Source of the DNA: Chitinophaga pinensis
GTDB lineage: Bacteria > Bacteroidota > Ignavibacteria > Kapaibacteriales > Kapaibacteriaceae
Direction of reading: 5' to 3'
Assembly: GCA_943372295.1 (NCBI GenBank)
Contig: CALRYC010000004.1
Span: 2,325 to 66,324 of the forward strand
Length of the DNA: 64,000 nucleotides
The notes under the pieces were generated by a model that saw only the letters and a program-made list of their open reading frames with translations, did no database searches and was not told where the DNA came from. Each line of letters opens with the position of its first letter. Positions within the stretch are counted from its first letter, which is position 1. Shown one piece after another: positions 21,400 through 58,928 of this stretch. The position numbers and the translations under genes are program-made.

Positions 21400-21405
21400 G
21401 GGCGC

Positions 21406-21505: not shown

Positions 21506-21527
21506 CCGACTTCTACTATCTTGCGTC

Positions 21528-24968: not shown

Positions 24969-25880
24969 GTGGCGTGCTCTCCAGACGTTGTGATACGTCA
25001 GCTTCTCATCCTGCTCATCATTGCCTGGCACGCCCCCTCCATGGGCGCGTCAGGCATTTCTTTTTCGTGGCAGACATCAGCGCAGCAGCAGGATTCCGTC
25101 AAGCCGCAGGCGGCAATTGACCCATGGCGACTCGGCGCCCTCACCACTGTGGGAGTTGGCGCATTTACCGTGGGGCACGGCTGGCTTAACAACCTCTGGT
25201 GGAAGGGGGCTCCTGCCGACTTCCATGTGAACGTGCAGCAGGACTGGACGTATGCGCTCGGGGCCGACAAGGTAGGCCACGCCTACTTCGCCGCAACATC
25301 GGCAACGCTCATCGCCGGTTCGCTGCGCTGGTCCGGACTCGACACCGCCTCGTCGCTCTGGTGGGGCTCGTCGATCGCCATGGCCTATCAGACATACAAC
25401 GAGGTCCGCGATGGATTCAGTCAGAACTACGGTTTCTCTCCCGGCGACATGGCAGGGAATCTTCTCGGCGCCGCATGGCCACTTGCTCAGCACTATGTGC
25501 CGGAACTGAAGGCCATCACCTTTCAGATCTCGTTCTACCCGTCAGAGCCATTCCGTAATGGATTTTATAATGCGATCATCGACGACTATGAAAGCACCAC
25601 GCACTGGCTGAGCGTTGACGTGCATCAGCTGCTTCCCCAAGCCGCCCAGGCCTGGTATCCTCCGTGGATCAATCTCGCCCTCGGCCACTCCGTCAGGGGG
25701 CTCGTCGGATCATCAACCCCACAGCACGTCTTTGTGCTTTCACTCGACTGGAACCTCAAACGACTGCCCTTCCTGCCAGACTGGCTGCGGCAAACCTTTG
25801 AGTACCTGCACATGTATCACCTGCCCGCACCGGCTGTGGAGATCACGCCGAACGTGCGGTGGGTCGGCTTGAGGTTTTAG
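24969..25880 (+). CDS. Hypothetical exported/membrane protein (possibly DUF2279-like)
   Basis: GTG start and hydrophobic N-terminus. The GADKVGHAYFAATSA and GFSPGDMAGNLLGA motifs resemble DUF2279 from memory. The stop TAG at 25878-25880 abuts repeat locus C. Confidence 0.55.
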   Translation: MACSPDVVIRQLLILLIIAWHAPSMGASGISFSWQTSAQQQDSVKPQAAIDPWRLGALTTVGVGAFTVGHGWLNNLWWKGAPADFHVNVQQDWTYALGADKVGHAYFAATSATLIAGSLRWSGLDTASSLWWGSSIAMAYQTYNEVRDGFSQNYGFSPGDMAGNLLGAAWPLAQHYVPELKAITFQISFYPSEPFRNGFYNAIIDDYESTTHWLSVDVHQLLPQAAQAWYPPWINLALGHSVRGLVGSSTPQHVFVLSLDWNLKRLPFLPDWLRQTFEYLHMYHLPAPAVEITPNVRWVGLRF

Positions 25881-26181
25881 CGCCGAAGCGGAGGGAAACC
25901 TGCGGAGGGAAACGCGCTGCGCGCGAGGGAAGCCGAAGCGGAGGGAAACCTGCGGAGGGAAGCCGAGGCGGAGGGAAACGCGCTTCGAGCGAGGGAAGCC
26001 GAGGCGGAGGGAAACGCGCTTCGCGCGAGGGAAACCGAAACGGAGGGAAACCGAAGCGGAGGGAAACGCGCTTCGCGCGAGGGAAGCCGAAGCGGAGGGA
26101 AACCTGCGGAGGGAAACCTGCGGAGGGAAGCGCGCTTCGCGCGAGGATCAACCTCACACCTCACACCCCACACCTCAAACC
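25881..26181 (+). repeat. Composite repeat locus C: 15 GAGGGAA units joined by CCGAAGCGG / CTGCGG / GCGCTTCGCGC linkers (25881-26150), junction GATCAACC, then (TCACACC)-type heptamers x4 (26154-26181)
   Basis: Units counted individually. The array starts at the base after the upstream stop codon, and the last heptamer contains the yjbR-like stop (26175-26177, minus strand). Confidence 0.95.
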
Positions 26182-26498
26182 TTCTTCTTGACCAGCCCAT
26201 ACGAATGATCGATCCAGTGGCGGATCTCGGTTGGGGTGAGTGAGCCATCGATGGTGATGGTGTTCCAGTGCTTTTTGTTCATGTGGAAGCCGGGCTGGAC
26301 GCAGGCGTGGCGTTCGCGGAGTTCAACGGCGGTTTCCGGGTCGCATTTGACGTTGAATTGTTGTGTGGGGGCATCGAGCGGGACCAGACAGAACACTTTG
26401 CTGTTGACCTTATAGACGATCACGTCGGGACCGAAGGGGAAGGTCTCTTCTGTGCCGGGGAGGCTGAGGCAGTGATTGCAGACATCGACGATATCCAT
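26175..26498 (-). CDS. MmcQ/YjbR-family protein
   Basis: 107 aa. LSLPGTEETFPFGPDVIVYKVNSKVFCL...MNKKHWNTITIDGSL is the typical YjbR-family pattern. Confidence 0.82.
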   Translation of the reverse strand: MDIVDVCNHCLSLPGTEETFPFGPDVIVYKVNSKVFCLVPLDAPTQQFNVKCDPETAVELRERHACVQPGFHMNKKHWNTITIDGSLTPTEIRHWIDHSYGLVKKKV

Positions 26499-26514
26499 GG
26501 GTGCAAAGTAAACG

Positions 26515-26547
26515 AAAAAGCCCCCTGACCGGGTGGTCAGGAGGCTT
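26515..26547 (-). terminator. Rho-independent terminator after the 138-aa secreted-protein gene
   Basis: On the minus strand, AGCCUCCUGACC-ACCC-GGUCAGGGGGCU forms 12 bp including one G-U pair, followed by UUUUU. Confidence 0.8.
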
Positions 26548-26572
26548 GTATCATTCAGTTCTTAGCGGGTTG

Positions 26573-26989
26573 TTACTTGCCTGAGCCTTGGGCGGCCTTG
26601 ACCGACTCGTTAAGAGCATTCATGATGTCTTTGAACGTGTCGGCTTCGGAGCCCTTGAGTGTTCCACGCTGCATCAGCAGGGCGAGGTTCTGGATCTGAT
26701 CGCCGCGCATTTCGACGGTGATGACATCATCGGTGGTCTTCTTGGCCTTCGTGGCCTCGTCGATGGCATCGCTGAGGACCTTACGGACGTCGAGGAAGGC
26801 ATCGACTTCGTTGCCGCGGATCTCGATGCCGCCAAGGAATTGGACAGCGCCCTGAATATAGGCGAGCTTGAGCTTTGGCTTTAGCACGACCGGTGCCTGA
26901 GCAGCAGGAGCGAGTGAGCCTTGAGCGAAAGAGTCCGTGCTGCCCAGGAAGAGGACGCCGGCGACTGCGATCATTGCGAAGATTTTCAT
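26573..26989 (-). CDS. Small secreted protein, paralog 1 (138 aa, unknown function)
   Basis: Signal peptide MKIFAMIAVAGVLFLGSTDSFA-Q. Aligns with the product of 27089-27511 (I-R--EVD-F-DVR--L, VE---Q--NL-LL-QR, AL-N---A). Confidence 0.75.
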   Translation of the reverse strand: MKIFAMIAVAGVLFLGSTDSFAQGSLAPAAQAPVVLKPKLKLAYIQGAVQFLGGIEIRGNEVDAFLDVRKVLSDAIDEATKAKKTTDDVITVEMRGDQIQNLALLMQRGTLKGSEADTFKDIMNALNESVKAAQGSGK

Positions 26990-27021
26990 GGTGTACGGCA
27001 GTTGTGGAGTGAAAAAGAGTG

Positions 27022-27054
27022 CAAAGGTACGGTTTGTGCGGGGTGCGAAGCAAG
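27022..27054 (-). promoter_or_regulatory. FCB-type promoter (cTTGc-N21-TACCTTTG) for paralog 1
   Basis: The reverse complement reads CTTG CTTCGCACCCCGCACAAACCG TACCTTTG. The -7 box lies about 32 nt upstream of the ATG at 26989. Confidence 0.55.
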
Positions 27055-27088
27055 ACGGCCGGGACGTGAACCAGCAGCGCGGGAGGGC

Positions 27089-27511
27089 TTACTTCTTCTT
27101 TGAGGCAGGCGCCGTGGCGGCCTTGTTCAGGGCGGCACGCATGGAGCTAACCGTTACCGAGTCCGCCCCGGATACCTTGCTGCGCTGCAGAAGCAGATCA
27201 AGGTTAACGGTCTGGTCGGGCGTGAGTTCTACTTTCAGAACGTCCGTGTCGGCTTTGCCATTCGCAGCGCGGGCCAGCAGATTGCGGACGTCGATAAACA
27301 CGTCCACTTCGATGGCACGAATATCGACGTTGTTGAGGATCCGAAGGGTCTCCTTGATCTGGGAGGCCTGGAGTTGCGGTGTATATGGCCCCTTGTTTTC
27401 ACCTTGGATCGTGATGCGGTCAAGTGTTCCGGAGCCGCGGGATGATTGCGCCCGGGCGTCAGGGGTTACTGTCATGGTCACGGCAGCTAGCAGGGCAAGG
27501 AAAAACTTCAC
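27089..27511 (-). CDS. Small secreted protein, paralog 2 (140 aa, unknown function)
   Basis: I place the start at GTG 27511 (VKFFLALLAAVTMTVTPDARA-Q signal peptide). The TTG at 27547 lies inside the predicted -7 box. Confidence 0.7.
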   Translation of the reverse strand: MKFFLALLAAVTMTVTPDARAQSSRGSGTLDRITIQGENKGPYTPQLQASQIKETLRILNNVDIRAIEVDVFIDVRNLLARAANGKADTDVLKVELTPDQTVNLDLLLQRSKVSGADSVTVSSMRAALNKAATAPASKKK

Positions 27512-27544
27512 GGTAATCTCGCTGTTGAAAGGAATGGGGACTCC

Positions 27545-27577
27545 CAAATCTACGGCGCATGATCGCCCCGACGCAAG
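27545..27577 (-). promoter_or_regulatory. FCB-type promoter (cTTGc-N21-TAGATTTG) for paralog 2
   Basis: The reverse complement reads CTTG CGTCGGGGCGATCATGCGCCG TAGATTTG, the same architecture as 27022-27054. Confidence 0.55.
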
Positions 27578-27841
27578 ACTGTTTATGTGCTGTGCGCGAC
27601 GCGTTCGACGCTAGCTTGGAGATACTATTGTGATGGGAAGGGGGCTGATCGAATATTCTCTAGCAGCAATTGAGTTTCGTGGCCCCATACAGTGATTGTG
27701 TCGTCGTCTGAAGTGTCTTGAACACCTAACAAACCCCAATGTGAGGGTGCTGCGAGCCCTTCGTGAGTTGAGAAAGTCGATTCAGCCCCCTTGAAACGAA
27801 CATCTGCGTTGCCGTAAATGAAAAAAATGTTCCATACCTGT

Positions 27842-27872
27842 CTTGCATGTGGTGCAAACTCAGTTATATTTG
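27842..27872 (+). promoter_or_regulatory. FCB-type promoter (cTTGc-N19-TATATTTG) for the 122-aa gene
   Basis: TTG at 27843-27845, a 19-nt spacer, and TATATTTG at 27865-27872. This predicts a leader of about 80 nt before the ATG at 27959. Confidence 0.55.
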
Positions 27873-27958
27873 TCGTGTTGTTTGATCAACACAGACGGAA
27901 CTCGGCAGGCATGCAGCATTAGTCTTAATTCACCGGTGCTTCGGGGAATTCGCAAGAG

Positions 27959-28327
27959 ATGTCACGACGGACAACCATCAGGGTGACGCATAAGGTCCTC
28001 ATGCAGGATCAGGAAGTGGCGCAGGCCGTCCTGAATCTGAAGGATTACAGCCCATCCAATAAGGAGTTCACGTCGGACAAACTGCGAGAAGCATTGGAGA
28101 GGGTGAAGGCAGCCGAACAGGCCGAGCAGGCAGCCAGCGAGGCTGCCGCGAAGGCGCGTGACGAGGCGATCCGTATTGAAAGTGCCTTTCACGATCTGGT
28201 GCTGGGCGTCAAGCGGCAGGTCATCGCGCAGTACGGCGATGATTCCGACGAGATCACGGCTCTTGGCCTAAAGAAGAAATCGGAGCGCCGCTACGGTCGC
28301 CCCAAGAAAGCAGCGCAGACAACCTAA
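27959..28327 (+). CDS. Hypothetical protein (122 aa; Ala/Glu-rich helix and basic tail)
   Basis: ORF with ATG start. AAEQAEQAASEAAAKARDEA coiled segment and C-terminal KKKSERRYGRPKKAAQTT. No recognisable family. Confidence 0.55.
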   Translation: MSRRTTIRVTHKVLMQDQEVAQAVLNLKDYSPSNKEFTSDKLREALERVKAAEQAEQAASEAAAKARDEAIRIESAFHDLVLGVKRQVIAQYGDDSDEITALGLKKKSERRYGRPKKAAQTT

Positions 28328-28414
28328 CGTAACGGTTCCCACGGAAAACATGACTTTGGGGGAAGGCATGTAGCATAAAGAGGATGCAGTCCTCGTGGGA
28401 AGAGCGCTAAGCAG

Positions 28415-28446
28415 AACGGCCATCCTTTGGATGGCCGTTTCTGTTT
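28415..28446 (+). terminator. Rho-independent terminator (possibly bidirectional, in a convergent spacer)
   Basis: AACGGCCATCC-TTT-GGATGGCCGTT (11-bp stem) followed by TCTGTTT. Confidence 0.7.
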
Positions 28447-28492
28447 ACGCGATGTGATAGCAGCAGACGACGTCTGCCGAGGCAGCGAGGCC

Positions 28493-28960
28493 CTACGCGC
28501 CGATGGCAGCGTAGAGCGCGTCGAAGTCGGGAAGCACGCCCGGATTGGCCGTTACTTCCGAGTACGCGATCGTGCCGTCCGGACCCACAACGAAGACCGC
28601 GCGGTGTGAGCGCGTCAGGCCCGGAATGCCGGCGAAGTTCTCGAATGCAACGTCATAGGCATTGATCGTTGAGAGCGTGAAGTCCGACACGATTGGAAAC
28701 TCCAAACCGTTGGCTTCGGCAAACGCCTTGTTCGCAAATGGAATGTCGGCCGTGATGGCAACAACGGCAGCGTTGACGCCATTGAGGCGCTGAAGAGCCC
28801 CCTGAAACGTGCACAGCTCGTCTTTGCAGACGCCCGTGAAGGCGGCAGGGAAGAATGCGACGACAACCGTCTTGCCGGCATGTGCTGAAAGAGAGACCGG
28901 GTTTTTGTCGGCGTCGAGAAGCGTGAAGTCAGGTGCGGTGGTTCCAACGGCTAGTGCCAT
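28493..28960 (-). CDS. bcp: Peroxiredoxin, Bcp/PrxQ type
   Basis: Start at ATG 28960 (MALAVGTTAPDFTL). FFPAAFTGVCKDELC carries the PxxxTxxC motif plus a CX4C resolving cysteine. Confidence 0.85.
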   Translation of the reverse strand: MALAVGTTAPDFTLLDADKNPVSLSAHAGKTVVVAFFPAAFTGVCKDELCTFQGALQRLNGVNAAVVAITADIPFANKAFAEANGLEFPIVSDFTLSTINAYDVAFENFAGIPGLTRSHRAVFVVGPDGTIAYSEVTANPGVLPDFDALYAAIGA

Positions 28961-29010
28961 GAGATTCTCCAGAGTGTGTTGATAGAAAATTGTCAGCTTC
29001 AGGGAAGGTG

Positions 29011-29018
29011 CAAACCTA
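29011..29018 (-). promoter_or_regulatory. Candidate -7 box TAGGTTTG upstream of bcp
   Basis: The reverse complement of CAAACCTA matches TAnnTTTG about 50 nt upstream of the ATG at 28960. No well-spaced TTG -33 element was seen. Confidence 0.3.
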
Positions 29019-29107
29019 CGGACTGCACGTAACAATCTGCGGGAGCTATCACGTTCCCACATGTATATTGCGCGGCCGTAAATCCGTTATCAAAAGGGGA
29101 GACGCTG

Positions 29108-30559
29108 ATGGCGTTTGAGCTACGATTCCGCAAGGATATCTCGCAGTTACAGAGTGATGCAGTTCACAATACCGAACTGAAGCGCACACTTGGGGCGGGC
29201 AATCTCATCAATCTCGGTATTGGCGCGATCATTGGTGCAGGGCTGTTCTCGCTGACCGGTATCGCAGCCGCAGAGCATGCCGGACCTGCTGTGTCGCTTT
29301 CTTTTGTGATTGCAGCTATTGGCTGTGCATTTGCCGGACTGTGTTATGCTGAGTTTGCAGCAATGATCCCGGTAGCTGGCAGCGCTTACACCTATGCATA
29401 CGCTACGATGGGTGAACTTTTCGCGTGGATCATCGGGTGGGACCTTGTCCTCGAGTATGCAGTTGGCGCTTCGACGGTGGCCGTTTCTTGGTCAGCATAT
29501 CTGGCAAAGTTCCTCGCGTACTACGGGATCACTCTGCCTACGTCTATCGCGATGTCGTACTGGCAAACACCGCCGGGTTCAACCGAGCATGGATTGGTGA
29601 ATCTCCCTGCAATGTTCATTGTGTTCGTTGTATCTCTGTTGCTCATCCGTGGTATTCAGGAATCCGCGCGAGCCAATGCTTTCATCGTGGCACTCAAGGT
29701 TGCCGTGGTGATCATCTTCATTGGTCTTGGCTTTGCTTACATAAACGCCGACAACTACGCTGAGTTCATTCCGGCGAACACGGGAGAGTTTGGCCACTTC
29801 GGTTGGAGCGGAGTGCTGAAGGCAGCAGGCATGGTCTTTTTTGCCTTCATCGGATTTGACGCCGTTTCGACGGCCGCACAGGAAGCAAAGAATCCGCAAC
29901 GCGACATGCCGATCGGTATCCTCGGGTCGCTGGTTATCTGTACCGTTTTGTATGTGCTTTTCTCCTTTGTGATGACGGGCGTTGCGAACTATACGGAGTT
30001 TGCTGGTGCGGCGGCTCCGGTTGCTGTAGCGATAGATAAGATGGGGGTAAGCTGGCTGGGGCCTGCGATCAATCTTGCGATCATCGCAGGGTACTCAAGC
30101 GTGATCCTCGTGATGCTCCTTGGTCAGTCCCGGGTGTTCTACACAATGTCCAAGGATGGCCTCCTGCCAAAGCTCTTTTCGGATACGCATCCGAAGTACA
30201 AAACGCCGTGGAAGTCGAACCTTCTTTTTGCCTTCGTGGTAAGCCTGTTTGCAGGCTTTGCGCCCATCGCGCTTGTTGGTGAGATGACGTCGGTTGGTAC
30301 ACTGTTTGCCTTTGTCGTGGTGTGCGCGGCGGTTCTCATCCTGAGGTATAAGGAGCCCAACCGCGAGCGACCATTCAAGACACCACTTGTGCCGCTGGTC
30401 CCGATCCTTGGCATTCTTTCGTGCGGAGCTCTGCTGGTCTCCCTTTGCCTGAGCGACTACCTGCACTTCTTGCGACTCGCCGTGTGGCTTGCTATCGGTC
30501 TGGTTGTCTATGAAGTTTATGGAAAGAAACACTCCCTTGTCCGCAAGGGAGCGGCATGA
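29108..30559 (+). CDS. APC-superfamily amino-acid permease (cationic amino-acid transporter-like)
   Basis: 483 aa, about 12-13 TM segments. N-terminal LKRTLGAGNLINLGIGAIIGAGLF signature. Confidence 0.85.
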   Translation: MAFELRFRKDISQLQSDAVHNTELKRTLGAGNLINLGIGAIIGAGLFSLTGIAAAEHAGPAVSLSFVIAAIGCAFAGLCYAEFAAMIPVAGSAYTYAYATMGELFAWIIGWDLVLEYAVGASTVAVSWSAYLAKFLAYYGITLPTSIAMSYWQTPPGSTEHGLVNLPAMFIVFVVSLLLIRGIQESARANAFIVALKVAVVIIFIGLGFAYINADNYAEFIPANTGEFGHFGWSGVLKAAGMVFFAFIGFDAVSTAAQEAKNPQRDMPIGILGSLVICTVLYVLFSFVMTGVANYTEFAGAAAPVAVAIDKMGVSWLGPAINLAIIAGYSSVILVMLLGQSRVFYTMSKDGLLPKLFSDTHPKYKTPWKSNLLFAFVVSLFAGFAPIALVGEMTSVGTLFAFVVVCAAVLILRYKEPNRERPFKTPLVPLVPILGILSCGALLVSLCLSDYLHFLRLAVWLAIGLVVYEVYGKKHSLVRKGAA

Positions 30560-32001: not shown

Positions 32002-32014
32002 CGTGCTTCGCACA

Positions 32015-32097
32015 GGTGTGAGGTGTGAGGTTGAGGTGTGAGGTGTGAGGTGTGAGGTGTGAGGTGTGAGGTGTGAGGTGTGAGGTGTGAGGTGTGA
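32015..32097. repeat. Locus D part 1: (GGTGTGA)x12 (one 6-nt GGTTGA variant)
   Basis: Counted: 32015-32028 (2 units), 32029-32034 (variant), 32035-32097 (9 units). Begins 13 nt after the permease TAA. Confidence 0.95.
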
Positions 32098-32280
32098 GGT
32101 TGATCCTCGCGCGCTGCGCTTCGCGCAGGTTTCAGGTTTCAGGTTTCAGGTTTCAGGTTTGAGGTGTGGGGTCCAACTCCGCTTCGGTTTCCCTCGCGCG
32201 CTGCGCTTCGCGCAGGTTTCAGGTTTCAGGTTTGAGGTGTGGGGTCCAACTCCGCTTCGGCTTCCCTCGCGCGCTGCGCG
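32098..32280. repeat. Locus D part 2: two direct copies (87 and 73 bp) of CCTCGCGCGCTGCGCTTCGCGCAG-(GGTTTCA)n-GGTTTGAGGTGTGGGGTCCAACTCCGCTTCGG-yTTC
   Basis: The copies start at 32105 and 32192 and differ by two GGTTTCA units (4 vs 2). A third, truncated start occurs at 32265. Confidence 0.9.
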
Positions 32281-32526
32281 TTTCCCTCCGCTTCGGTTTC
32301 CCTCGCGCGAAGCGCGTTGCCCTCCGCTTCGGTTTCCCTCGCGCGAAGCGCGTTGCCCTCCGCTTCGGTTTCCCTCGCGCGAAGCGCGTTTCCCTCCGCT
32401 TCGGCTTCCCTCGCGCGAAGCGCGTTTCCCTCCGCTTCGGTTTCCCTCGCGCGAAGCGCGTTTCCCTCCGCTTCGGTTTCCCTCGCGCGAAGCGCGTTTC
32501 CCTCCGCTTCGGCTTCCCTCCGCAGG
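32281..32526. repeat. Locus D part 3: 36-bp tandem repeat x6.8 (TTTCCCTCCGCTTCGG + TTTCCCTCGCGCGAAGCGCG)
   Basis: Unit boundaries at 32281, 32317, 32353, 32389, 32425, 32461 and 32497. There are no unique spacers. Ends at the base before the stop (32527-32529) of the minus-strand T9SS gene. Confidence 0.95.
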
Positions 32527-34626
32527 TTACCGCACGACCACGAGCGGAACGCTGATGTTCTGCCGCTGGCCCCTGATGGTAACCGTGTAGGTGCCCACCG
32601 GCAGAGATGTCACATCAAATGATGTTTGGTGCGTGCCGGCGGCCAGCACTCCGGCGTCGAAGGTCGAGACGGTGCGGCCCGTTACGTCGACGAGTGATAC
32701 GATGGCCATGCCGCCGGAGGAGAGAAAGAACTCCACGTTGACGTTATCGGAGGCAGGGTTAGGGGCGATGGTTGCCAGGACCGATGCTCCGGTTTCGACA
32801 TCATCGGTTACGTGCGTGGTTAGGACGCTTGCCCGCGCGCCACGCCCCATGTCGTAGTATGTTCCGCTGGCACTGGATAGAAGAGCGCAACAGCGGACCA
32901 TGTACTCGAGTGTTCCGTCGTTACGCAACGAGTCCTGATACGACGTAGCTGTGATAGGGCGGGTGGTAAGCGCTGTCCACTTCTTCGTGCCTTCCTTACG
33001 ACGGTAAACCATGTACGCATCGGCCGTGCCGGAGGGCTTGATCCATGAGAGTTTGACCTTGTTCGGAAACTCCGTCTTGGCTGTAATGGTGCCGAGTGCA
33101 GCGATCTGTTTCGGGTTGGAACGAAGTGTCGGATCACCAAGCAGGGCAATGTGGATCTGACGTTCAAGGCCTCCGGTGAGGGCATAGGACCCGTCAGCGT
33201 TGATGTTGATCACCTGCACGTAGTTGCCCAGAACTCCGCCAGAATAGATCTGCGAACTGTTCTGACTCAATCGGGTGCTGTATCCGATCGTCTCGCCAAG
33301 AGCCATGTGGTGGATGTACCAGTGTGGACGTCCGGACCAGGCCGACGTTAGCACGCGCGGATCCGTGGCAAGAGGCGCCCGCAGGAAATTATTCTGCGTG
33401 TTCCAGTCACCGAAGTAACTGCCGAACAGGAAGGTGAACACCGCATGAACCGGCTTTGTGGACATGTCGGTTGTGGAGCCGACGCCGCCGGCAGAGACAT
33501 CCGTTCCGGCTCCGCAGCCGTATCCGAGCAGGTAGGTCGTCGGCCCCTTAAGGTCGGTGAAAAAGTCGCCCGCACGTACCGCCGTATCCGGTCCGAACAC
33601 GCTGAAGCCCCGCCATGCCGATGCGCTGAATGCCTCGGGATAGGATGTGAAATTGTCATCAATGATCCCACCTGCGCGCACGCTCCATGCGCCTGTCCGG
33701 TAATCGTGGTTCTTCTTGAAGTAGTTCTTCAAAAGATCGGTCTCGCTCGATTTGAACAGCGGCATGTTGAAGAAGTCGATCCGCCCGACCGGTATGTCGA
33801 CGTCGGTGTTGAACACACTCTGGTCGAACTTCCCGTCGCCCGGGATGTTACTGTTCACTGGACGCGATGTGTTGGGCTGATTGGACGTGCGATCGGTATA
33901 GTTACCGTTGTGGTCGCCGTAGATGCCATCGGCAGGCCAAGCCCCCTGATGATCCGGCACATGTCCATCAGGTGCAATGACGCCGGAATATGGCACCGGC
34001 ACGCGTCCGACCAGGACGATCGCGCCAAGGTCGCGACCGCTGTTCCACTCCTGCTTAATAAGCGCCCGCACGCGGTTGACCTTGCCGGAATCAAAGGTCT
34101 CGGCGCGCGGCACTGACATGATGGTGACGTCCCAGCCCTCGTTAAGAAGATCCTGCTCGAAGGTGCTCAGCTGCGTTGCCAGCGGCTGACGCATGGTCGA
34201 GTCGACAAGCACAAGGGCACGTTCCCGTGGGGCAGGGGGCGCTTCGATCCCCGCATTGATGTAACCAACACCGCAGAAATTGACGTTTGCTGCGCCGTTC
34301 TTCCGACTGATAACACGAAACACGCGGTATTCGTAGGACTGTCCGGTCTCAATGTCATTGTCGGTCCATTCCAGCCCCTTGCCCACAACCGAGTCATAGA
34401 TCTCGGGGCTGAACACGGCGTTGTCCTTGAGCTTTCGCCAGATCAGCGCGCCGACCTGATTGTCGTCTTTGTTCCAGCGCAACGTGATCGATGGCTTCGT
34501 TCCTCCTACAACACGGGCGTTGAGCGAAAGTCCGAAATCGCGCGGAGCAGGGGCCTGTGCTTGTGTTACGACCACCATGGTGAGCGTAAGGATCGCGGCT
34601 GTAACCAAAGAGCGGATCAACGACAT
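32527..34626 (-). CDS. T9SS cargo protein with two Fn3-like domains and a central alpha/beta domain (possibly gingipain/C25-like)
   Basis: Start at ATG 34626 (MSLIRSLVTAAILTLTMVVVTQAQA signal). Fn3-like segments (ITLRWNKDD...YEYRV; KLSWIKPSG...YMV). C-terminus NPASDNVNVEF...VDVTGRTV...LPVGTYTVTI matches a Por-secretion tail. The C25 assignment is weak. Confidence 0.7.
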   Translation of the reverse strand: MSLIRSLVTAAILTLTMVVVTQAQAPAPRDFGLSLNARVVGGTKPSITLRWNKDDNQVGALIWRKLKDNAVFSPEIYDSVVGKGLEWTDNDIETGQSYEYRVFRVISRKNGAANVNFCGVGYINAGIEAPPAPRERALVLVDSTMRQPLATQLSTFEQDLLNEGWDVTIMSVPRAETFDSGKVNRVRALIKQEWNSGRDLGAIVLVGRVPVPYSGVIAPDGHVPDHQGAWPADGIYGDHNGNYTDRTSNQPNTSRPVNSNIPGDGKFDQSVFNTDVDIPVGRIDFFNMPLFKSSETDLLKNYFKKNHDYRTGAWSVRAGGIIDDNFTSYPEAFSASAWRGFSVFGPDTAVRAGDFFTDLKGPTTYLLGYGCGAGTDVSAGGVGSTTDMSTKPVHAVFTFLFGSYFGDWNTQNNFLRAPLATDPRVLTSAWSGRPHWYIHHMALGETIGYSTRLSQNSSQIYSGGVLGNYVQVININADGSYALTGGLERQIHIALLGDPTLRSNPKQIAALGTITAKTEFPNKVKLSWIKPSGTADAYMVYRRKEGTKKWTALTTRPITATSYQDSLRNDGTLEYMVRCCALLSSASGTYYDMGRGARASVLTTHVTDDVETGASVLATIAPNPASDNVNVEFFLSSGGMAIVSLVDVTGRTVSTFDAGVLAAGTHQTSFDVTSLPVGTYTVTIRGQRQNISVPLVVVR

Positions 34627-34827
34627 ATTGTTCTTCCTCAGCATTGAGTGTGTAAGGGGCGTGGTGGCACGTTGCCTGCCGACCCAACGCGGAAAAGTTA
34701 CGACGGGCAGGGATTCCGTGGTATACCTCGTTCTCGTATCTTTCCCGGGCATGCGCGCGCGCGCCTGTCTGCGGCCTTTATGCGCTTGCTGAGGCACCTG
34801 ACTTTACCATCGAGTGTGGGATGTGGC

Positions 34828-39867: not shown

Positions 39868-39871
39868 CCCC

Positions 39872-44441: not shown

Positions 44442-44447
44442 CCCTTC

Positions 44448-45716: not shown

Positions 45717-45738
45717 GGCGGCGAAGATACGCCTGAAA

Positions 45739-47528: not shown

Positions 47529-47541
47529 GCGACTTGAGAAG

Positions 47542-48281: not shown

Positions 48282-48296
48282 GCTAGGGGGCTTTCG

Positions 48297-50026: not shown

Positions 50027-50601
50027 CAGCCGTGCATCGTCGGTTGATTGGTCATCGAACGGATAATGTCGGCCTCGATTCGGCCGAACTCTTTAAGTCG
50101 ACGCTTGACGTCCACCACCGGGAAGTACTCACGGGCGATGTCCGTATAAGCGCGGTAATGTCCGGCCTCGCTCGCCAGCAGACTCTTATACAGGGCCCGC
50201 ATATCCTCGGTTATTGCGTGCTCGGCCAGAAGGGAGAAGCGTTCGCAGGATCGCGCCTCGATGAACGCACCCACAATGAGCGAGTCTAAGAGTCGGTGTG
50301 GCTCGCTCTTGCGGATCTGCTCGTGAAGAAGCTGCGCATACCGGTTGCCGGTATCGTGACGCAGTGTGAAGCCCCTTGACTCGAGCTCTTTGACGACTAG
50401 CTCGAAGTGTTCCAGCTCCTCCTTGGCAAGATCGATCATGTCCTTTACCAGACGCGTGCGCTCGGGATAGCGATTGATCATCGCAAGGGCGAACGCCGCA
50501 GCCTTCTTCTCGCAATGGGCATGGTCGATCAGGATCTCAATCAAATGGTCGTTGGCAACTCCGATCCACTCGGGATTGGACTCGCATTCAAGGCAAAGCA
50601 T
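50026..50601 (-). CDS. miaE: tRNA-(ms2io6A37)-hydroxylase
   Basis: 191 aa. LIDHAHCEKKAA...EELEHFELV...IEARSCERF...EAGHY di-iron motifs typical of MiaE. Confidence 0.82.
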   Translation of the reverse strand: MLCLECESNPEWIGVANDHLIEILIDHAHCEKKAAAFALAMINRYPERTRLVKDMIDLAKEELEHFELVVKELESRGFTLRHDTGNRYAQLLHEQIRKSEPHRLLDSLIVGAFIEARSCERFSLLAEHAITEDMRALYKSLLASEAGHYRAYTDIAREYFPVVDVKRRLKEFGRIEADIIRSMTNQPTMHG

Positions 50602-50622
50602 GGGACGAAGTTACCGAGAATA

Positions 50623-50760
50623 GGTGTGAGGTGTGAGGTGTGGGGTGTGAGGTTGTCATTCCTGCGAAAGCAGAAATCCACGTATTCGAAGATGGATTCC
50701 CGCTTTCGCGGAAATGACGGCAGTACCCAGTACCCAGTACCCAGTACCCAGTACCCAGTC
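50623..50760. repeat. Composite repeat locus E: (GGTGTGA)x4 (50623-50650) + two-hairpin core (50656-50712) + (CAGTACC)x5.7 (50721-50760)
   Basis: Counted base by base. Lies between the stop of the beta-lactamase-like gene (50762) and the miaE start (50601), i.e. in the miaE promoter region. Confidence 0.95.
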
Positions 50761-50761
50761 T

Positions 50762-53250: not shown

Positions 53251-55806
53251 CTAGCGGACGATGAAGTTGATGAGTTTATTCGGAACGAAGACCTCCCGGA
53301 CGATCTCCTTTCCGTCAAGATGCCGGGCAATGGCCTCATCCAGACGTGCCAGGGATCCTGTCGTGGCCGCATCCGCATCGATGGGTACGATGATCTTCCC
53401 GCGGATCTTCGAGCTTACCTGCACCACGATCTCTACCTCGCTCAGTACAAGCTTGGACGGATCGAATTCCGGGAAGGTAGATGTGTGCACAGAGCCCTCG
53501 CCACCGAGGATGTGCCAAAGCTCTTCAGTGATGTGTGGCGCGAAGGGGGCAAGGCACTGCACATACTGGAGCATTGCCACACGCGGACGTACGTCAAGCT
53601 TGGTAAACTCGTTGACGAAGATCATCATCTGCGCGATCGCCGTGTTAAAGCTGATGGCGTCAACATCCTCCCGGATCTTCTTGATCGTTGCATGCAGCAC
53701 GCGCTCGAGTTCCGGCGGACATGGCACGTCCTGCACAGCAGGCCAGAGCGTGCTGTCTTCGGTGGCAATCATTCGCCACGACCGGTTAAGAAAACGCGTG
53801 ACACCCTCGATGCCCGTGGTGTTCCAGGGCTTGGAGGCTTCGAGCGGACCAAGGAACATCTCATAAAGGCGCAGAGCATCGGCGCCGTGAGCGGCGATGA
53901 CCTCGTCAGGGTTGACGACGTTGCCGAGCGACTTGGACATCTTACGTCCGTCTTCGCCCATGATCAGTCCCTGGTGAAAGAGGCGTTTGAACGGCTCGGG
54001 AGTGGAGACGTAGCCATAGTCATACAGCACCTTGTGCCAGAAGCGGGCATAGAGAAGGTGCAGCACCGCATGCTCGCCGCCTCCCATGTAGAGGTCTACA
54101 CCGTCGGCGCCCATCCAGTACTTCTCGGCTTCGGGGTCGCAGAACGTCGACGCATTAAACGGGTCGCAATAGCGCAGATAGTACCAGCACGAGCCGGCCC
54201 ACTGCGGCATCGTGTTTGTCTCCAGACGCGCCTTCTTGCCCGTTTTTGGGTCGATGAAGTTCACCCATGACTCGACGGTGGCAAGTGGCGACTCGCCCGT
54301 ACCGGCGGGTTTGAACTCGGCTACCTCCGGCAAGAGCAGTGGAAGCTCGTAGGCCTCAAGTGCGCGCTTGGTGCCGTCGTCGAAGAACATGATCGGTATC
54401 GGTTCGCCCCAGTAGCGCTGACGTGAGAACAGCCAGTCGCGCAGGCGGTACTGCAGGCGCCCCTTGCCAACACCCGACGATTCGAGCCATGCGATGATGG
54501 TCGACTTTGCGTCGGCCGTCGGCAGACCATTCAGGCTGACATGCTCGTTCTCGGAGTTCAGTCCAACGCCTTCGTCGGAGAATGCCGCGTCGGCAACGTC
54601 GATCGTTGAGCCATCGATCGGCTGAACCACTTGCACGATCGGCAGGCCAAAGGCGGTGGCAAACTCGTGATCACGCTCATCATGTCCGGGTACGGCCATG
54701 ATCGCACCTGTGCCGTAGTGAGCCAGCACGTAATCGGCAACCCAGATCGGCACGGCCGCGCCATTGGCCGGGTTGATGGCATATGCACCTGTGAACACAC
54801 CCGTTTTGACCTTGCTGAGCTCGGTTCGCTCGAGGTCACTTTTTAGAGCTGAGGTTTCGCGGTATGCGAGAACCTCGATGCGCTGCTCGTCTGTAACAAG
54901 GTGATCGACGATCGGATGCTCGGGAGCAACAACAAGATATGTGGCACCAAAGAGTGTGTCAGGACGAGTCGTAAACACTGTTATCGAGTGCTGAAGGTCC
55001 TGCACTGGGAAATGCACCTCAGCCCCCTCACTGCGTCCTATCCAGTGACGCTGCATGTCCAGCGTGGATGACGGCCAGTTGAGGATGTGGAGATCAGCAA
55101 GCAAACGCTCGGCGTATTCCGTAATGCGCAGCATCCACTGACGCATCGGCCGTCGTTCAACGCTGTAGCCCTTGTCTTTCCACTCGTCGACCTCTTCGTT
55201 GGCAAGCACCGTGCCGAGGGCCTCACACCAGTTCACGGGCGAGTAGGCGACATAAGCAAGACGATGCCGGTCGCGGTAGTCTTCGATGTCTGTGGCGGAG
55301 GTCAGCTCTGCTGGGATCGGCAACTCTTCGATCGGAAGGGCCTTGCCTGCAGCACGGTCGAACCACGAGTTGTACATGATCAGAAACATCCACTGCGTCC
55401 AGCGGTAGTAGTCCGGAAGCGTGGTGTTAACCTCGCGTGACCAGTCGTAATCGAAGCCGATGGCGTTGAGCTGACGTTTGAACGTGGCAATGTTGTTTGC
55501 CGTAGCGATCGACGGGTGAATCCCCGTCGTCATGCTGTAGCGCTCCGTTGGCAGACCAAACGCATCGAAGCCCATCGGATGCAGGACGTTGAAGCCGCAC
55601 ATCCGCTTAAATCGGCTGATGATATCCGTGGCTGTGTATCCTTCCGGATGGCCAATATGCAGTCCGGCCCCTGACGGATAGGGGAACATGTCAAGAACGT
55701 AGTACTTCGGCTTCGAGCGGTCGCTGCTGACGGCCGTAGTGCCATACTGCGCCCAGTGGCGCTGCCATTTTTCTTCGATGGATGCGAATGGATAGTGCAT
55801 CCGCAA
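53251..55806 (-). CDS. leuS: Leucyl-tRNA synthetase
   Basis: 851 aa. PYPSGAGLHIGHPEGY (HIGH) and KMSKSLGN (KMSKS) motifs. Confidence 0.95.
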   Translation of the reverse strand: MRMHYPFASIEEKWQRHWAQYGTTAVSSDRSKPKYYVLDMFPYPSGAGLHIGHPEGYTATDIISRFKRMCGFNVLHPMGFDAFGLPTERYSMTTGIHPSIATANNIATFKRQLNAIGFDYDWSREVNTTLPDYYRWTQWMFLIMYNSWFDRAAGKALPIEELPIPAELTSATDIEDYRDRHRLAYVAYSPVNWCEALGTVLANEEVDEWKDKGYSVERRPMRQWMLRITEYAERLLADLHILNWPSSTLDMQRHWIGRSEGAEVHFPVQDLQHSITVFTTRPDTLFGATYLVVAPEHPIVDHLVTDEQRIEVLAYRETSALKSDLERTELSKVKTGVFTGAYAINPANGAAVPIWVADYVLAHYGTGAIMAVPGHDERDHEFATAFGLPIVQVVQPIDGSTIDVADAAFSDEGVGLNSENEHVSLNGLPTADAKSTIIAWLESSGVGKGRLQYRLRDWLFSRQRYWGEPIPIMFFDDGTKRALEAYELPLLLPEVAEFKPAGTGESPLATVESWVNFIDPKTGKKARLETNTMPQWAGSCWYYLRYCDPFNASTFCDPEAEKYWMGADGVDLYMGGGEHAVLHLLYARFWHKVLYDYGYVSTPEPFKRLFHQGLIMGEDGRKMSKSLGNVVNPDEVIAAHGADALRLYEMFLGPLEASKPWNTTGIEGVTRFLNRSWRMIATEDSTLWPAVQDVPCPPELERVLHATIKKIREDVDAISFNTAIAQMMIFVNEFTKLDVRPRVAMLQYVQCLAPFAPHITEELWHILGGEGSVHTSTFPEFDPSKLVLSEVEIVVQVSSKIRGKIIVPIDADAATTGSLARLDEAIARHLDGKEIVREVFVPNKLINFIVR

Positions 55807-55829
55807 ATATAGGGGGCGAGTGTTGTGGG

Positions 55830-57659
55830 CTAGGGGGCGACCACCGAGGTGGTTGCTGATTGCTCACGTGCCAGGCCCCGAATTTCTTCACTCAGTTCAG
55901 ACAGCGACAGAACCATGAATCCATCGAGAGCGTTCGAAAACGCAGCATCGACGTTGAAGGCCACCATCTGCGCATTCTGCTGAGCGTATTTCTTGAGAAG
56001 GATCGGACAGCTGGACCCGTCGGGTTCGATATGAGCGATGAGTTTATCAAGCAGTCGCATGTCATCGTTGATCGGATGCATGAGATCATCTATCTCAATG
56101 CCGGGAAGATCAGCTTTGAATGGCGCTCTTGGTTGAACGTGTCCGTACAACGACGAAGTTGCTGCGCGGCGCATGAAGAACGCTCGGATGATCTCCTTGG
56201 ATACGTCACGGTAGCGGTCCGAGACCGAAACGCACCCAACGATGGCTTCCAGTTCAGGATGGCTGATGATGTACGTTAAAATGCCTCGCCACAATAGGTG
56301 CAGGGGCAGACGTTGACGTTGAAACTCCGGTCGAACGAAAGAACGACCGAGTTCAAGACAGCTTCTCATCATTGCCCGTGCCGTATCGTCGAAGTGGAAC
56401 AGAGATGCCGAGTACATCCCACTGATTCCGTGCTTTTCCATGATGCGGCCACCGTGCCCAAGCCGATATGATCCGGCAATGCACTTTGATGGGCGATGCC
56501 ACAGGACAAGATGTTCATAATGCCGGTCGTAAGCGTCGATGTCCAGCGCGGTGCCCGTTCCTTCGCCTACGTGACGGAAGGTTATCTCCCGAAGTCGACC
56601 GATCTCGTGAAGGATATTTGGAGCCGTGTCTCGTTGCATCAGGAAAACGTCAAAGTCGCCCTGCGTAAGTAGGCGGCAACTATCAAGCTGGTCGATTTCC
56701 GTTTCGATGGCTTCACAGCTCACCGTGCCAGCCACGGCAGGCAGCACAACCTTGGGCATTGAGGCATCGGCACTTCTTTTCAGTAGTGCAGGAGACTTTA
56801 GATAAACGATCGTTCTGAGAAATCTTCCAAGGTCCTGTGCGCTTGACGATGCTTGGATGATCCCCCGATGAATTGGAGCACCAAACGTGATGGACATCAA
56901 GCCATTTCGCTGACGAAGCAGTTCCGAGGGAAGAAGTGCGGTGCGAAGTCGCGGATGGATCTTTCCTGCAGCATAGAACAGCGATGAATTCCGGCCGGTG
57001 ATGAATGCCGGAACAACCTCCGCAGAGGTGCGTTGAATGATCTTTGAGATTGTCTCGCTCCAAGGTCTGTCTACCGGCCCAAGACCATTCACGAGGGTCG
57101 ACGAGACCTCGCCGGCAGGGAAAACGACCAACACACCTCCTTGGTTGAGATGATGCAGGGCCTTACGAAAACCACCGATGTTGGCGCTTACCGACGTCGG
57201 GGTATTGAACGGATCAACGTCGATCAGCACTTCGCGCAGAGGCTCAATCCGCTGCAGAACGTAGTTGGTCATGATGCGCACGTCCTTACGTCGCCGAAGC
57301 ACTGCGCCGAGCAATCCGACCCCGTCGAGTGCACCAAGGGGATGATTGGCAACAACCACGACAGGCCCGGAGTCTGGAATCAATGCCAGGGACTCCTCGT
57401 TCACGTCGAGGCGCACATTGAGAATCTTGAACAGCTGGTCAGTGAATGACTCGAGATCGAGATGCGCACACCGTGCATAGATGTCATTGATCTCATCGAG
57501 TCGTAACACCCACCTCGCCATGTGTACGACAGGATCGATCGGCTTGCGCCCCAGAGCAGCGGCGAGCTCTTGATGTGTAAGGAGTCCTTTGGTTGGTCGA
57601 TCGTTCTCGTGCGCGCAGGGATAGATGGCTGCTGCGGGTTCTGCTGAAGAGTTTGCCAC
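55830..57659 (-). CDS. Two-domain acyltransferase, OlsF-like (N-terminal PlsC-type O-acyltransferase + C-terminal OlsB-type GNAT N-acyltransferase)
   Basis: VVVVANHPLGALDG (HX4D) in the N-terminal half. DIDAYDRHYEHLVLWHR...IAGSYRL in the C-terminal half resembles OlsB-type aminolipid N-acyltransferases. Confidence 0.65.
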   Translation of the reverse strand: MANSSAEPAAAIYPCAHENDRPTKGLLTHQELAAALGRKPIDPVVHMARWVLRLDEINDIYARCAHLDLESFTDQLFKILNVRLDVNEESLALIPDSGPVVVVANHPLGALDGVGLLGAVLRRRKDVRIMTNYVLQRIEPLREVLIDVDPFNTPTSVSANIGGFRKALHHLNQGGVLVVFPAGEVSSTLVNGLGPVDRPWSETISKIIQRTSAEVVPAFITGRNSSLFYAAGKIHPRLRTALLPSELLRQRNGLMSITFGAPIHRGIIQASSSAQDLGRFLRTIVYLKSPALLKRSADASMPKVVLPAVAGTVSCEAIETEIDQLDSCRLLTQGDFDVFLMQRDTAPNILHEIGRLREITFRHVGEGTGTALDIDAYDRHYEHLVLWHRPSKCIAGSYRLGHGGRIMEKHGISGMYSASLFHFDDTARAMMRSCLELGRSFVRPEFQRQRLPLHLLWRGILTYIISHPELEAIVGCVSVSDRYRDVSKEIIRAFFMRRAATSSLYGHVQPRAPFKADLPGIEIDDLMHPINDDMRLLDKLIAHIEPDGSSCPILLKKYAQQNAQMVAFNVDAAFSNALDGFMVLSLSELSEEIRGLAREQSATTSVVAP

Positions 57660-57777
57660 TCACAACGTTAGGCGCAGTAGTGTTACGCCAACGAAAAGTC
57701 ACCATTAGCTTTCGACAATACAGATGGGCGTAGCTTTGTCCTTCGGAATATCACCACCAGTAACCAGCAACTTCACC

Positions 57778-58749
57778 ATGAACCACGTCAATCTTGGCCG
57801 CACTGGTCTGAAAGTCTCCCGCCTCTGCCTCGGCACCATGAACTTCGGTCACTGGATCGAGGAGCAGGATTCCTATCCGGTGATGAGCCGTGCGCTTGAG
57901 CATGGCATCAATTTCTTCGATACGGCGAATGTTTACGGATATGACAAGGGCAGGGGGCGTACCGAAGAGGTCATCGGTAACTGGCTGGCGCAGGACCCGT
58001 CGCGTCGTGACAAGATCGTTCTCGCAACGAAACTCTACAGTCCTATGGCCGATGGGGTGAACGACCGCGGCTGCTCTGCGTACCACATCAAGAAGGCCTG
58101 CGAGGATTCACTGCGAAGGCTCAAGACAGATCACATCGATCTGTATCAAATGCATCACATTGATCGTTCGACGCCGTGGGAGGAGCTCTGGCAGGCAATG
58201 GAACAGCTTGTGCGCGAGGGCAAGATCCTCTACGTGGGCTCAAGCAACTTTGCCGCATGGAACATGGCGCAGGCCAGTGAGCGTGCAAAGCAGCGCCACT
58301 TCCTCGGACTCGTCAGCGAGCAGAGCGTGTACTCACTTCGCAACCGTCACATCGAACTCGAAGTGATCCCTGCTGCAAAGGCCTACGGCATGGCCATCCT
58401 GCCGTGGAGTCCACTTGGAGGGGGCTTGCTGGCCGGCATCTTCTCAAAGTCCGACACGCTTCGTCGCAAGCGTCCGCAGCTTATCGAGGCCGCCGAAAAA
58501 CTACGTCCACAGGTTGAGCAGTATGAAGCTCTGTGCGCAAGACTTGGTCTAGACTGCGCCGACGTTGCCCTTGCATGGCTGCTTCAGCGCGACGGCGTCA
58601 CAAGCCCCATCATCGGCCCGCGCACAGTCGAACAGCTCGACGCCAACGTTGCCTCCATGAACATCACGCTCGAGGCTAACACCCTTGCCGAACTCGACCG
58701 CATCTGGCCGGGGCCGGGCAATCAGGCTCCCGAGGCGTACGCGTGGTAG
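57778..58749 (+). CDS. Aldo/keto reductase
   Basis: Start at ATG 57778 (MNHVNLGRTGLKVSRLCLGTMNFG). DTANVYG, DLYQMHH and SNFAAW motifs. The TAG at 58747-58749 abuts repeat locus F. Confidence 0.88.
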   Translation: MNHVNLGRTGLKVSRLCLGTMNFGHWIEEQDSYPVMSRALEHGINFFDTANVYGYDKGRGRTEEVIGNWLAQDPSRRDKIVLATKLYSPMADGVNDRGCSAYHIKKACEDSLRRLKTDHIDLYQMHHIDRSTPWEELWQAMEQLVREGKILYVGSSNFAAWNMAQASERAKQRHFLGLVSEQSVYSLRNRHIELEVIPAAKAYGMAILPWSPLGGGLLAGIFSKSDTLRRKRPQLIEAAEKLRPQVEQYEALCARLGLDCADVALAWLLQRDGVTSPIIGPRTVEQLDANVASMNITLEANTLAELDRIWPGPGNQAPEAYAW

Positions 58750-58928
58750 GAAGCCGAAACGGAGGGAAGCCGAAACGGAGGGAAGCGCGCTCCGCGCGAG
58801 GGAAGCCGAAACGGAGGGAAGCCGAAACGGAGGGAAGCCGAAACGGAGGGAAGCCGAAACGGAGGGAAGCCTGCGGAGTTTGAACCTCACACCTCACACC
58901 TCACACCTCACACCTCACACCTCACTAC
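58750..58928 (+). repeat. Composite repeat locus F: 7 GAGGGAA units (mostly 16-bp GGAGGGAAGCCGAAAC) + junction GGAGTTTGAACC + (TCACACC)x5 plus one degenerate unit (58887-58928)
   Basis: Counted base by base. Same orientation as locus C. The last degenerate heptamer contains the stop (58925-58927) of the minus-strand OMP gene. Confidence 0.95.

Follow-up and report, generated by a model that had tools for sequence, protein, structure and literature searches.

Three arrays of the heptamer GAGGGAA, at loci that we call C, D and F, lie in a 64,000-nt stretch of contig CALRYC010000004.1 (assembly GCA_943372295.1, listed as Chitinophaga pinensis, GTDB family Kapaibacteriaceae), hereafter the window. 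They belong to a lineage-specific modular family of non-coding tandem repeats from a narrow Kapabacteria/Ignavibacteria-like clade. Each array, together with its run of (ACCTCAC)n heptamers, occupies one spacer between convergent genes from stop codon to stop codon. This filling had been proposed in an original prediction made from the letters of the window, and every one of its coordinates was borne out by direct sequence reading and by the open reading frame (ORF) tables. We consider the arrays to be probably a slippage-prone, lineage-specific modular repeat family whose boundaries are set by selection on the flanking genes.

Anatomy of the composite element

Tandem Repeats Finder (TRF) and motif searches identified exactly three GAGGGAA arrays in the window. 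The motif occurs 40 times, compared with 6.5 ± 2.4 expected, and 35 of these 40 copies lie within loci C, D and F. A 23-nt two-motif pattern, GAGGGAARCCGAARCGGAGGGAA, has 19 matches where none is expected, and all 19 are in the same three loci. The six flanking genes were all confirmed by Pfam: DUF2279 and YjbR at locus C, an amino-acid permease and a Por_Secre_tail protein of the type IX secretion system (T9SS) at locus D, and an aldo-keto reductase and a DUF5723 outer-membrane protein (OMP) at locus F.

At locus C, the DUF2279 gene ends with TAG at 25878-25880 and the first base of the array is 25881. The array (25881-26143, plus strand) has 15 perfect GAGGGAA motifs, which reach position 26129, with mini-hairpin spacers of 7, 9 or 13 nt, and its last hairpin ends at 26143. 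The junction AGGATCA (26144-26150) is followed on the same strand by a run of ACCTCAC, ACCCCAC and ACCTCAA (26151-26182), and the yjbR stop (TCA 26175-26177, minus strand) falls within the last of these heptamers. The sense strand contains no stop codon in any of the three frames across 302 nt.

The element at locus D is on the minus strand. Between the permease stop (TAA 31999-32001) and the heptamers lies a terminal mini-hairpin, cGTGCTTCGCAC (32002-32013), with the stem GTGC/GCAC and the loop TTC. The heptamers (32014-32100) read (AGGTGTG)12.6 on the plus strand and hence (CACACCT)n in the sense direction of the element. They are followed by nested blocks (32101-32261) comprising a junction, a hairpin, (CAGGTTT)n runs and single motif units, with a 73-nt higher-order repeat of 1.9 copies. 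The main array (32262-32526) has 13 perfect motifs, written TTCCCTC on the plus strand, and a 36-nt periodicity; its last base, 32526, adjoins the stop of the minus-strand Por_Secre_tail protein gene (32527-32529). Because the 12 nt of cGTGCTTCGCAC are a mini-hairpin of unit type, a class that we assigned by our own reading against the tabulated unit types, locus D is fully filled too.

At locus F, the stop of the aldo-keto reductase gene (TAG 58747-58749) is embedded in a degenerate first motif, GTAGGAA. The array (58750-58883, plus strand) has 7 perfect GAGGGAA motifs, mostly in 16-nt units GAGGGAAGCCGAAACG, and the junction GAGTTTGA. The heptamers, (ACCTCAC)6 at 58884-58925 on the plus strand, overlap the stop of the DUF5723 protein gene (CTA 58925-58927, minus strand). 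TRF assigned a period of 7 to the heptamer runs of all three loci (26151-26182, 32014-32100 and 58884-58925).

When copies from the window and its relatives were oriented with GAGGGAA on the top strand, the order of modules was constant in all complete copies: the GAGGGAA/mini-hairpin array, then a junction, then C-rich heptamers. The junction is GAGGATCAA or GAGTTGGA, and the heptamers after it are ACCTCAC, ACCTGAA, ACCTAAC and similar types of the general form (ACCTNAN)n. Spacers between motifs are mainly 7, 9 or 13 nt long, with a full range of 7-15 nt, and the periods of the arrays are 14, 16, 20 and 36 nt. The 314 inter-motif spacers of the window and all fetched loci reduce to 34 types. 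In 307 of them, the sequence from the second spacer base to the spacer's end, plus the first G of the next motif, forms a perfect hairpin; 30 of the 34 types do so, compared with a mean of 4.5 and a maximum of 10 in shuffled sequences. The mini-hairpins have stems of 2-5 bp (CC/GG, CCG/CGG, CGGC/GCCG and CGCGC/GCGCG) and loops of 3-4 nt. Stems differ among types, and variation of the spacers sits at the loop centre (T-N-C, A-R-R) and at the first purine. The array is a series of mini-hairpins strung on a constant 7-nt purine linker, AGGGAA+R.

All GAGGGAA linkers inside one array point the same way, and opposite directions are seen only between two separate composites, in the relative L028. 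There, three GAGGGAA arrays lie within 2.5 kb (949-3448), and two of them face one another across a gene for a 23S rRNA intervening-sequence (IVS) protein, a four-helix bundle. The hairpin types of L028 (GCGCGCGGAGCGC, GCGGCTGCGCC and GCGCGCAAGCGC) are unlike those of the window.

The two repeat modules differ in composition. The sense strand of the array is 40-45% G, 2-6% T and 66-77% purine, whereas that of the heptamer run is 50-56% C and 0-4% G; on either strand of the composite, the G-rich part comes first and the C-rich part second. The opposite strand of the heptamers, (GTGAGGT)n, has TGA in every frame. We rejected a clustered regularly interspaced short palindromic repeat (CRISPR) array, which would have repeats of 23-50 nt and unique spacers of similar length, as the repeat is only 7 nt long and the 314 spacers are 34 recurring types. 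An element derived from an insertion sequence (IS) or a miniature inverted-repeat transposable element (MITE) was also rejected: the two ends are different modules, and there are neither terminal inverted repeats nor flanking target duplications.

Distribution, turnover and ancestral state

The exact two-motif pattern occurs in only 4 species-level metagenome-assembled genomes (MAGs) among 185,579 species representatives, annotated as Kapaibacterium, Ignavibacteria and "Melioribacter", and on 14 stretches of metagenome contigs. Most MAG copies of the array lie at contig ends, and a practical consequence of the arrays is that they break short-read assemblies of this clade. The window DNA is 90% identical to the MAG CANHFG01, 92-95% to contigs of Ga0209985 and 86-92% to DAITZZ01. 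The best match of its DUF2279 protein has 97% identity and none is identical.

Orthologous arrays were found for locus C in L004 and L025, for locus D in L009 and for locus F in L013 and L032. Orthologous elements keep their first and last bases while their content differs strongly, with ACCTCAC or ACCTGAA as heptamers. At locus C, the number of motifs is 15 in the window, 24 in L004 and 8 in L025, with flanks that are 90-95% identical, and the boundary on the heptamer side is the same in L004 and L025. Copy number and type of the heptamer module also vary between orthologues, in 7-nt steps. A repeat of another kind, a long (GT)n microsatellite, is found in L025 (7737-7786) and L029 (~420-445), where it precedes, by about 55 nt, the start of a gene that encodes a protein of 820-850 aa; these two (GT)n loci are paralogous or strain-variant.

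More distant orthologues, obtained through protein searches, include some with no array. The locus C orthologue L037 (64% protein identity) has an array-free convergent spacer of 17 nt, and its DUF2279 protein ends GLRF* with TGA. The locus F orthologue L041 (59%) has an array-free spacer of 37 nt and keeps the ends AYAW* (TGA) and RLRF*. Across array-free orthologues the protein ends GLRF*, AYAW* and RLR[FML]* are kept. These orthologues have the same C-termini and spacers of only 17 or 37 nt, so the stops are at their ancestral positions, and the spacers that the arrays replaced, right up to those stops, were very short. Other gene pairs in the window overlap by 4-23 nt or lie about 20 nt apart, which shows how compact the genome is. 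Arrays of this kind can replace entire intergenic spacers precisely to the ancestral stops, and they offer a concrete case of hyper-mutable repeats coexisting with a very compact genome.

The sister of L037, L036 (the two are 84% identical), carries an array at the orthologous C site (3922-4075; flanking protein 66% identical to that of the window). It is built on GAGGGAC and has no heptamer run. It starts TAGCGCCGAAGCGGAGGGAC, and its first 19 nt, TAGCGCCGAAGCGGAGGGA, are the same as at locus C. After the DUF5723 OMP gene, other lineages have other repeats. In L039 (73%), more than 50 heptamers follow the same stop (3968-4369), with more than 20 copies of TGATTAC and then more than 28 copies of CAGTCAT, up to the contig end. 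In L040 (62%), (CAGGTTT/TAGGTTT)n occupies 3941-3972, again up to the contig end. It follows that different repeat families repeatedly colonise these gene-end spacers.

Placement and boundaries

We compiled a census of gene-pair geometry from our own gene calls, with Pfam and ARAGORN checks, in which orthologues were grouped. This gave 16 independent sites resolved on both flanks, including loci C, D and F. Seven sites are convergent, nine are tandem (seven with GAGGGAA in the sense orientation relative to the upstream gene and two antisense) and none is divergent. A gene map of the window based on codon usage has about 53 junctions, 6 of which are convergent: 3 carry the arrays, 2 are overlapping gene pairs and 1 is an array-free spacer of 165 nt. 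The location of 3/3 window arrays in convergent junctions has p≈0.0009, and the enrichment over all sites is about four-fold (7/16 sites compared with 6/53 junctions, p≈0.001). The absence of arrays from divergent spacers at the 16 resolved sites (0/16, p≈0.10) is weak evidence. At least one end of the element adjoins a gene 3′ end, either a stop codon or the 3′ end of a tRNA, in 16/16 resolved sites.

In addition to C, D and F, the convergent sites are those between a 198-aa gene and a TPR protein gene, NuoC and a GFO/IDH oxidoreductase, and RuvA and a 23S-IVS protein, and the PurH spacer. The tandem sense sites are yidD→yidC, ComF-like→M24 peptidase, NuoI→Mrr, tRNA-Pro→AAA_14 protein, thioesterase→response regulator, PNP oxidase→23S-IVS protein and a 311-aa gene→partial tRNA (Phe by our own reading). 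The tandem antisense sites are STAS→DnaB and UPF0102→ABC permease. The convergent placement on which the original prediction was built is therefore real as an enrichment and is not a random scatter, but it is not exclusive, since 9/16 sites are tandem. With regard to indifferent placement, which the prediction had named as the contrary outcome, copies do occur in other geometries and in both polarities, but no divergent copy was seen.

The prediction also treated a polarity conserved relative to one partner gene as evidence. The polarity is as described, but it is uninformative in convergent spacers. Since the heptamers are fixed 5′ of TTCCCTC, either orientation of the composite gives a transcript that reads stop-(GGUGUGA)n-UUCCCUC, and the rule is automatic. 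Tandem sites show both polarities (7:2, p=0.18, not significant). The spacer after purH contains the composite in opposite orientations in L021 (3293-3450) and L029 (4110-4330), two related genomes in which the neighbouring genes differ. Only the fixed internal order and the location are informative. On these two grounds, the view that such arrays are unlikely to be random slippage products was sound: they are not scattered anywhere, but have a fixed modular order and lie at gene 3′ ends.

Other heptamer elements also fill spacers in the window. A hairpin with (CAGTACC/CAGTCCC)n fills the tandem spacer at 21400-21527 from a TAG stop to the next ATG; within it, 21463-21497 is (CAGTCCC)n, a rotation of CCCCAGT, which we take to be the heptamer STRR1 of the cyanobacterial short tandemly repeated repetitive (STRR) sequences. 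On the minus strand at 50602-50761, (AGGTGTG)n, a palindromic 66-nt module and (CAGTACC)n fill a tandem spacer from stop to start. Because of these two elements, heptamer elements are not confined to convergent spacers even within the window. A different composite at 604-745, made of (GGGTACT)7, two inverted hairpin modules (CCGCGAAAGCGG / CCTGCTTTCGCAGG) and (AACCCCA)4.6, is flush on both sides, with the stop of a histidine-kinase-like ORF (TAG 601-603) and with the 3′ end of tRNA-Val (746-823, minus strand).

The two ends of the GAGGGAA composite behave differently. On the GAGGGAA side, at all sites with a same-sense gene, 0-18 nt separate its stop from the first perfect motif, a distance that never exceeds one unit. 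The array is cut there at arbitrary unit phases (TAG|GAGGGAA, TAG|CG, TAA|CCTGCG, TAA|ACGCGC… and TAG|GGAAGCG…), and several stops lie inside a degenerate motif or spacer (TAGGGAA, GTAGGAA, CCGTAGCG vs CCGAAGCG, and CCTGACG). One array starts 3 nt past tRNA-Pro. In three genomes the GAGGGAA end points at the dnaB start codon, with an identical stretch of 60 nt left between them. The heptamer end reaches or includes the convergent stop or, as at yidC and the response regulator gene, it extends to the ATG of the gene that follows.

At the yidD site of relatives (L033 4190-4600; also L002 and L031), the ORF has no stop ahead of the array and continues across its full length, so that the protein gains a charged tail of 50 residues (…HPGGYDPVPKRREAEAEGNLTEGSALRAREAEAEGNALRA…ASDTL*), and the heptamers then adjoin the yidC ATG. 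The read-through bears on the question of repeats that supply stop codons or C-terminal tails. ORFs that span arrays otherwise have negative codon-usage scores, and we rejected the possibility that the arrays are genes, with the yidD tail as the exception.

Origin and possible function

From the observed anatomy, distribution, turnover, ancestral state and boundary behaviour, we infer that slippage is the mechanism at work and that selection sets the boundaries. Hairpin-rich, perfectly periodic units would make the arrays highly liable to slip during replication and to recombine unequally, in registers of 7, 14, 16, 20 and 36 nt, which would give a fast turnover of content and copy number. A passage of PMC4679880 that cites Mrazek 2007 describes heptanucleotide units as the commonest long simple repeats in prokaryotes and ascribes them to polymerase slippage. 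Deletions and expansions that reach beyond the array would survive only when the flanking genes are spared, so that over time the array would take over all of the unconstrained spacer. Its ends would then be flush with ancestral stops or with the 3′ end of a tRNA, or would stop short of a start codon by between a few and 60 nt. Elements would be retained at gene 3′ ends, where a promoter is not required, and this would account for both the convergent enrichment and the lack of a divergent site among 16. The heptamer strand (GTGAGGT)n, with TGA in all frames, could provide the abutting gene with its stop or with a reserve one. On the other side, the stop must sit at or in the first GAGGGAA unit, because the sense strand of the array has none.

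Several points weigh against this explanation. TAG is in excess at the sense-side boundary (9/17 independent sites compared with 25% in other genes, p=0.012), and at both comparable sites, C and F, the stop is TGA in the array-free orthologue and TAG with the array. These data hint at a process of greater specificity than erosion. Perfect mini-hairpins across many stem variants and the constancy of GAGGGA(A/C) are hard to account for by pure neutrality. Nor does neutrality explain why an array is kept at locus C in a lineage that is 66% identical in protein (L036), or how compact genomes tolerate 175-525 nt of junk. Slippage alone does not explain the first seeding of a new site. The census itself was built on fragmentary MAG and metagenome loci, with crude gene calls of our own that were only partly Pfam-checked. 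A cellular function of the arrays is putative, and functional readings are kept alive by the perfect hairpins, by a position conserved to 66% protein identity and by the TAG excess.

The original prediction suggested, as one of two possibilities, a 3′-untranslated region (3′-UTR) or terminator-insulator function. Like intrinsic terminators, the arrays fill tail-to-tail spacers and contain GC-rich stems, but their stems are of 2-5 bp and have no T/U tract. A scan for intrinsic terminators detected no stem-plus-T-tract in the C or F arrays; its sole match within an element was a weak 7-bp stem at 32166-32182, in the nested-block segment of locus D. RNA folding z-scores, calculated for both strands against shuffles, were +2.2 and +0.8 for F and -2.2 and -1.4 for C. 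The sense RNA of locus F, which is almost devoid of stable hairpins, folds worse than all 200 shuffles. Overall, the RNAs of C and F are not unusually structured, and because folding is no more stable than that of shuffles, a hairpin-array terminator is unsupported. Arrays also lie directly before start codons (yidC), which argues against a strong terminator. The terminator reading is left with no positive support.

Just outside locus C, at 26518-26547 on the minus strand and between the gene at 26573-26989 and yjbR, there is a strong canonical terminator with a 13-bp stem and a T tract, so the organism does use intrinsic terminators. In L005 (2440-2480) and at the same site in L024, a canonical bidirectional intrinsic terminator, AAAAAAGCCCGCGACATATGCCACGGGCTTTGTTTTTT, lies beside a GAGGGAA composite and is flanked on its other side by a second hairpin-plus-(CAGTACC)n element.

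A different way to stop transcription would be through Rho or R-loops, with the composite as a bidirectional insulator between convergent genes. Unstructured RNA that is rich in C and poor in G is the preferred substrate of Rho. In this model, a modular Rho loading (Rho utilization, rut) site would be provided by the C-rich half, and the G-rich half, on the non-template strand, would favour pausing or R-loops. The sense RNA would be a purine array followed by G-free (ACCUCAC)n, and the antisense RNA would be (GUGAGGU)n followed by YUUCCCU linkers between mini-hairpins. The strong switch in skew, from 40-45% G in the arrays to 50-56% C in the heptamers, fits such a scheme, as do the regular single-stranded linkers spaced by hairpins, the enrichment in convergent spacers and the conservation of position across species. 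In the window, the six genes that abut arrays have no canonical terminator while one is present elsewhere; the array-free orthologous spacers of 17 and 37 nt also have none.

Set against this, arrays lie in gene pairs that are likely to be co-transcribed (yidD→yidC, where the heptamers touch the ATG, and STAS→dnaB, where 60 nt are left), the canonical terminator beside the composite in L005/L024 suggests that the composite alone does not terminate, and the close relative L037 is array-free at the same site. We consider an insulator of this kind unlikely, and somewhat more doubtful still is its fullest form, a self-expanding, strand-symmetric element that stops both convergent transcripts just past their own genes. 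If true, this would add to the factor-dependent bidirectional terminators a new architectural class, one made from microsatellite-like DNA. The arrays in any case raise the question of whether strand-symmetric modules with G-then-C skew can serve as factor-dependent insulators between convergent genes.

The second possibility in the original prediction was an insertion mechanism that targets gene ends. As an insertion with defined ends it is not supported, as the 5′ phases are arbitrary and there are no inverted termini or target duplications. A looser version is that elements with a 5′ terminus like TAG-(G)CGCCGAAGCG are seeded at gene 3′ ends or stops by a targeted process, either mobile or enzyme-driven, and are expanded later. 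A shared start, TAG|(G)CGCCGAAGCG-GAGGGA, does occur at four unrelated sites: C (with L036), the 311-aa gene, L006 and nuoI (in a TGA variant). The TAG enrichment (p=0.012) and the change from TGA to TAG in array-bearing genomes at C and F also speak for it, and the colonisation of the PurH spacer in both orientations and the differing heptamer families after the OMP gene among lineages are consistent with repeated seeding. At most sites, however, the boundary phase is arbitrary, terminal inverted repeats and target duplications are lacking, and one array follows a tRNA rather than a stop codon. No transposase or RAYT-like gene was seen beside any array, although the genomes were not searched for one. 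Targeted seeding seems to us improbable.

Least probable, and to be regarded as very unlikely, is an RNA element of the 3′-UTR, either a stabiliser or translation modulator like the repetitive extragenic palindromic (REP) sequences or a sponge for an AGGGAA/GGA-binding protein like CsrB/RsmZ: the preference for the sense orientation in tandem spacers (7:2), the start of arrays 0-18 nt from the stop and the repeated single-stranded GGA linkers between hairpins point that way, but the 7:2 ratio is not significant (p=0.18), F has hardly any stable hairpins and a sense RNA less stably folded than any of its shuffles, Rfam has no match, any likeness to the Shine-Dalgarno (SD) sequence is limited to the 5-nt core GGAGG of sites that the organism uses weakly, and no candidate binding protein was identified. 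In Escherichia coli, translation of the upstream gene is reportedly affected by REPs that lie no more than about 15 nt from a stop codon. With Rfam 15, only two tRNAs were detected in the window at the gathering score, and nothing was found on the arrays at E≤1. SD or anti-SD mimicry was rejected as a candidate, as the match is limited to the GGAGG core and to about half of the units, and SD-like motifs precede 24% of starts compared with 11% of controls. The arrays share with CsrB/RsmZ sponge RNAs many single-stranded GGA segments that alternate with small hairpins. They differ in that they have no promoter or terminator of their own, occur at tens of loci as gene-end spacers and carry GGA between hairpins rather than in loops.

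We found no description of such Kapabacteria or Ignavibacteria repeats in literature searches. As far as these searches show, the architecture and sequence are undescribed, whereas the phenomenon is of a known kind, akin to REPs with their bacterial interspersed mosaic elements (BIMEs) and to STRR sequences. Like the arrays, REP/BIME sequences are extragenic, hairpin-containing modular mosaics in many copies. They lie at gene 3′ ends, in convergent spacers or spacers within transcription units and not in divergent ones, often very near the stop, and their copy number differs between strains. They differ in being imperfect palindromes of 35-40 nt in alternating orientation, compared with direct 7-nt purine repeats that alternate with perfect mini-hairpins of 11-14 nt here. 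They also have a conserved 5′ GTAG, whereas in the arrays any of the four bases (G, T, C, A) can precede the boundary TAG, which is replaced at some sites by TGA or TAA. The arrays have an obligatory third module, a heptamer microsatellite; they are not similar in sequence to REP/BIME, and no RAYT gene has been linked to them so far.

STRR and other heptanucleotide repeats (in cyanobacteria; also TAACTGA of Beggiatoaceae, Cyanobacteria and Bacteroidetes, PMC4679880) are, as here, intergenic head-to-tail units of 7 nt. They resemble the heptamer module in showing 7-nt-step indels between strains and several heptamer types per spacer, and, like the arrays, they often lie right upstream of starts or between stops and break contigs in assemblies. 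In the arrays, however, the heptamers have other unit sequences (ACCTCAC, ACCTGAA) and are one module only, joined in fixed order to a GAGGGAA array with periods of 14, 16, 20 and 36 nt. Mini-hairpins on a purine linker, in fixed coupling to a C-rich heptamer microsatellite, are a hitherto undescribed repeat architecture in an uncultured lineage.

In L035, at 2540-2604, TATATTTG lies directly after a (CAGTACC)n run and upstream of a partial tRNA (Phe by our own reading), and it fits TAnnTTTG, which we take to be the Bacteroidetes-type -7 promoter consensus.

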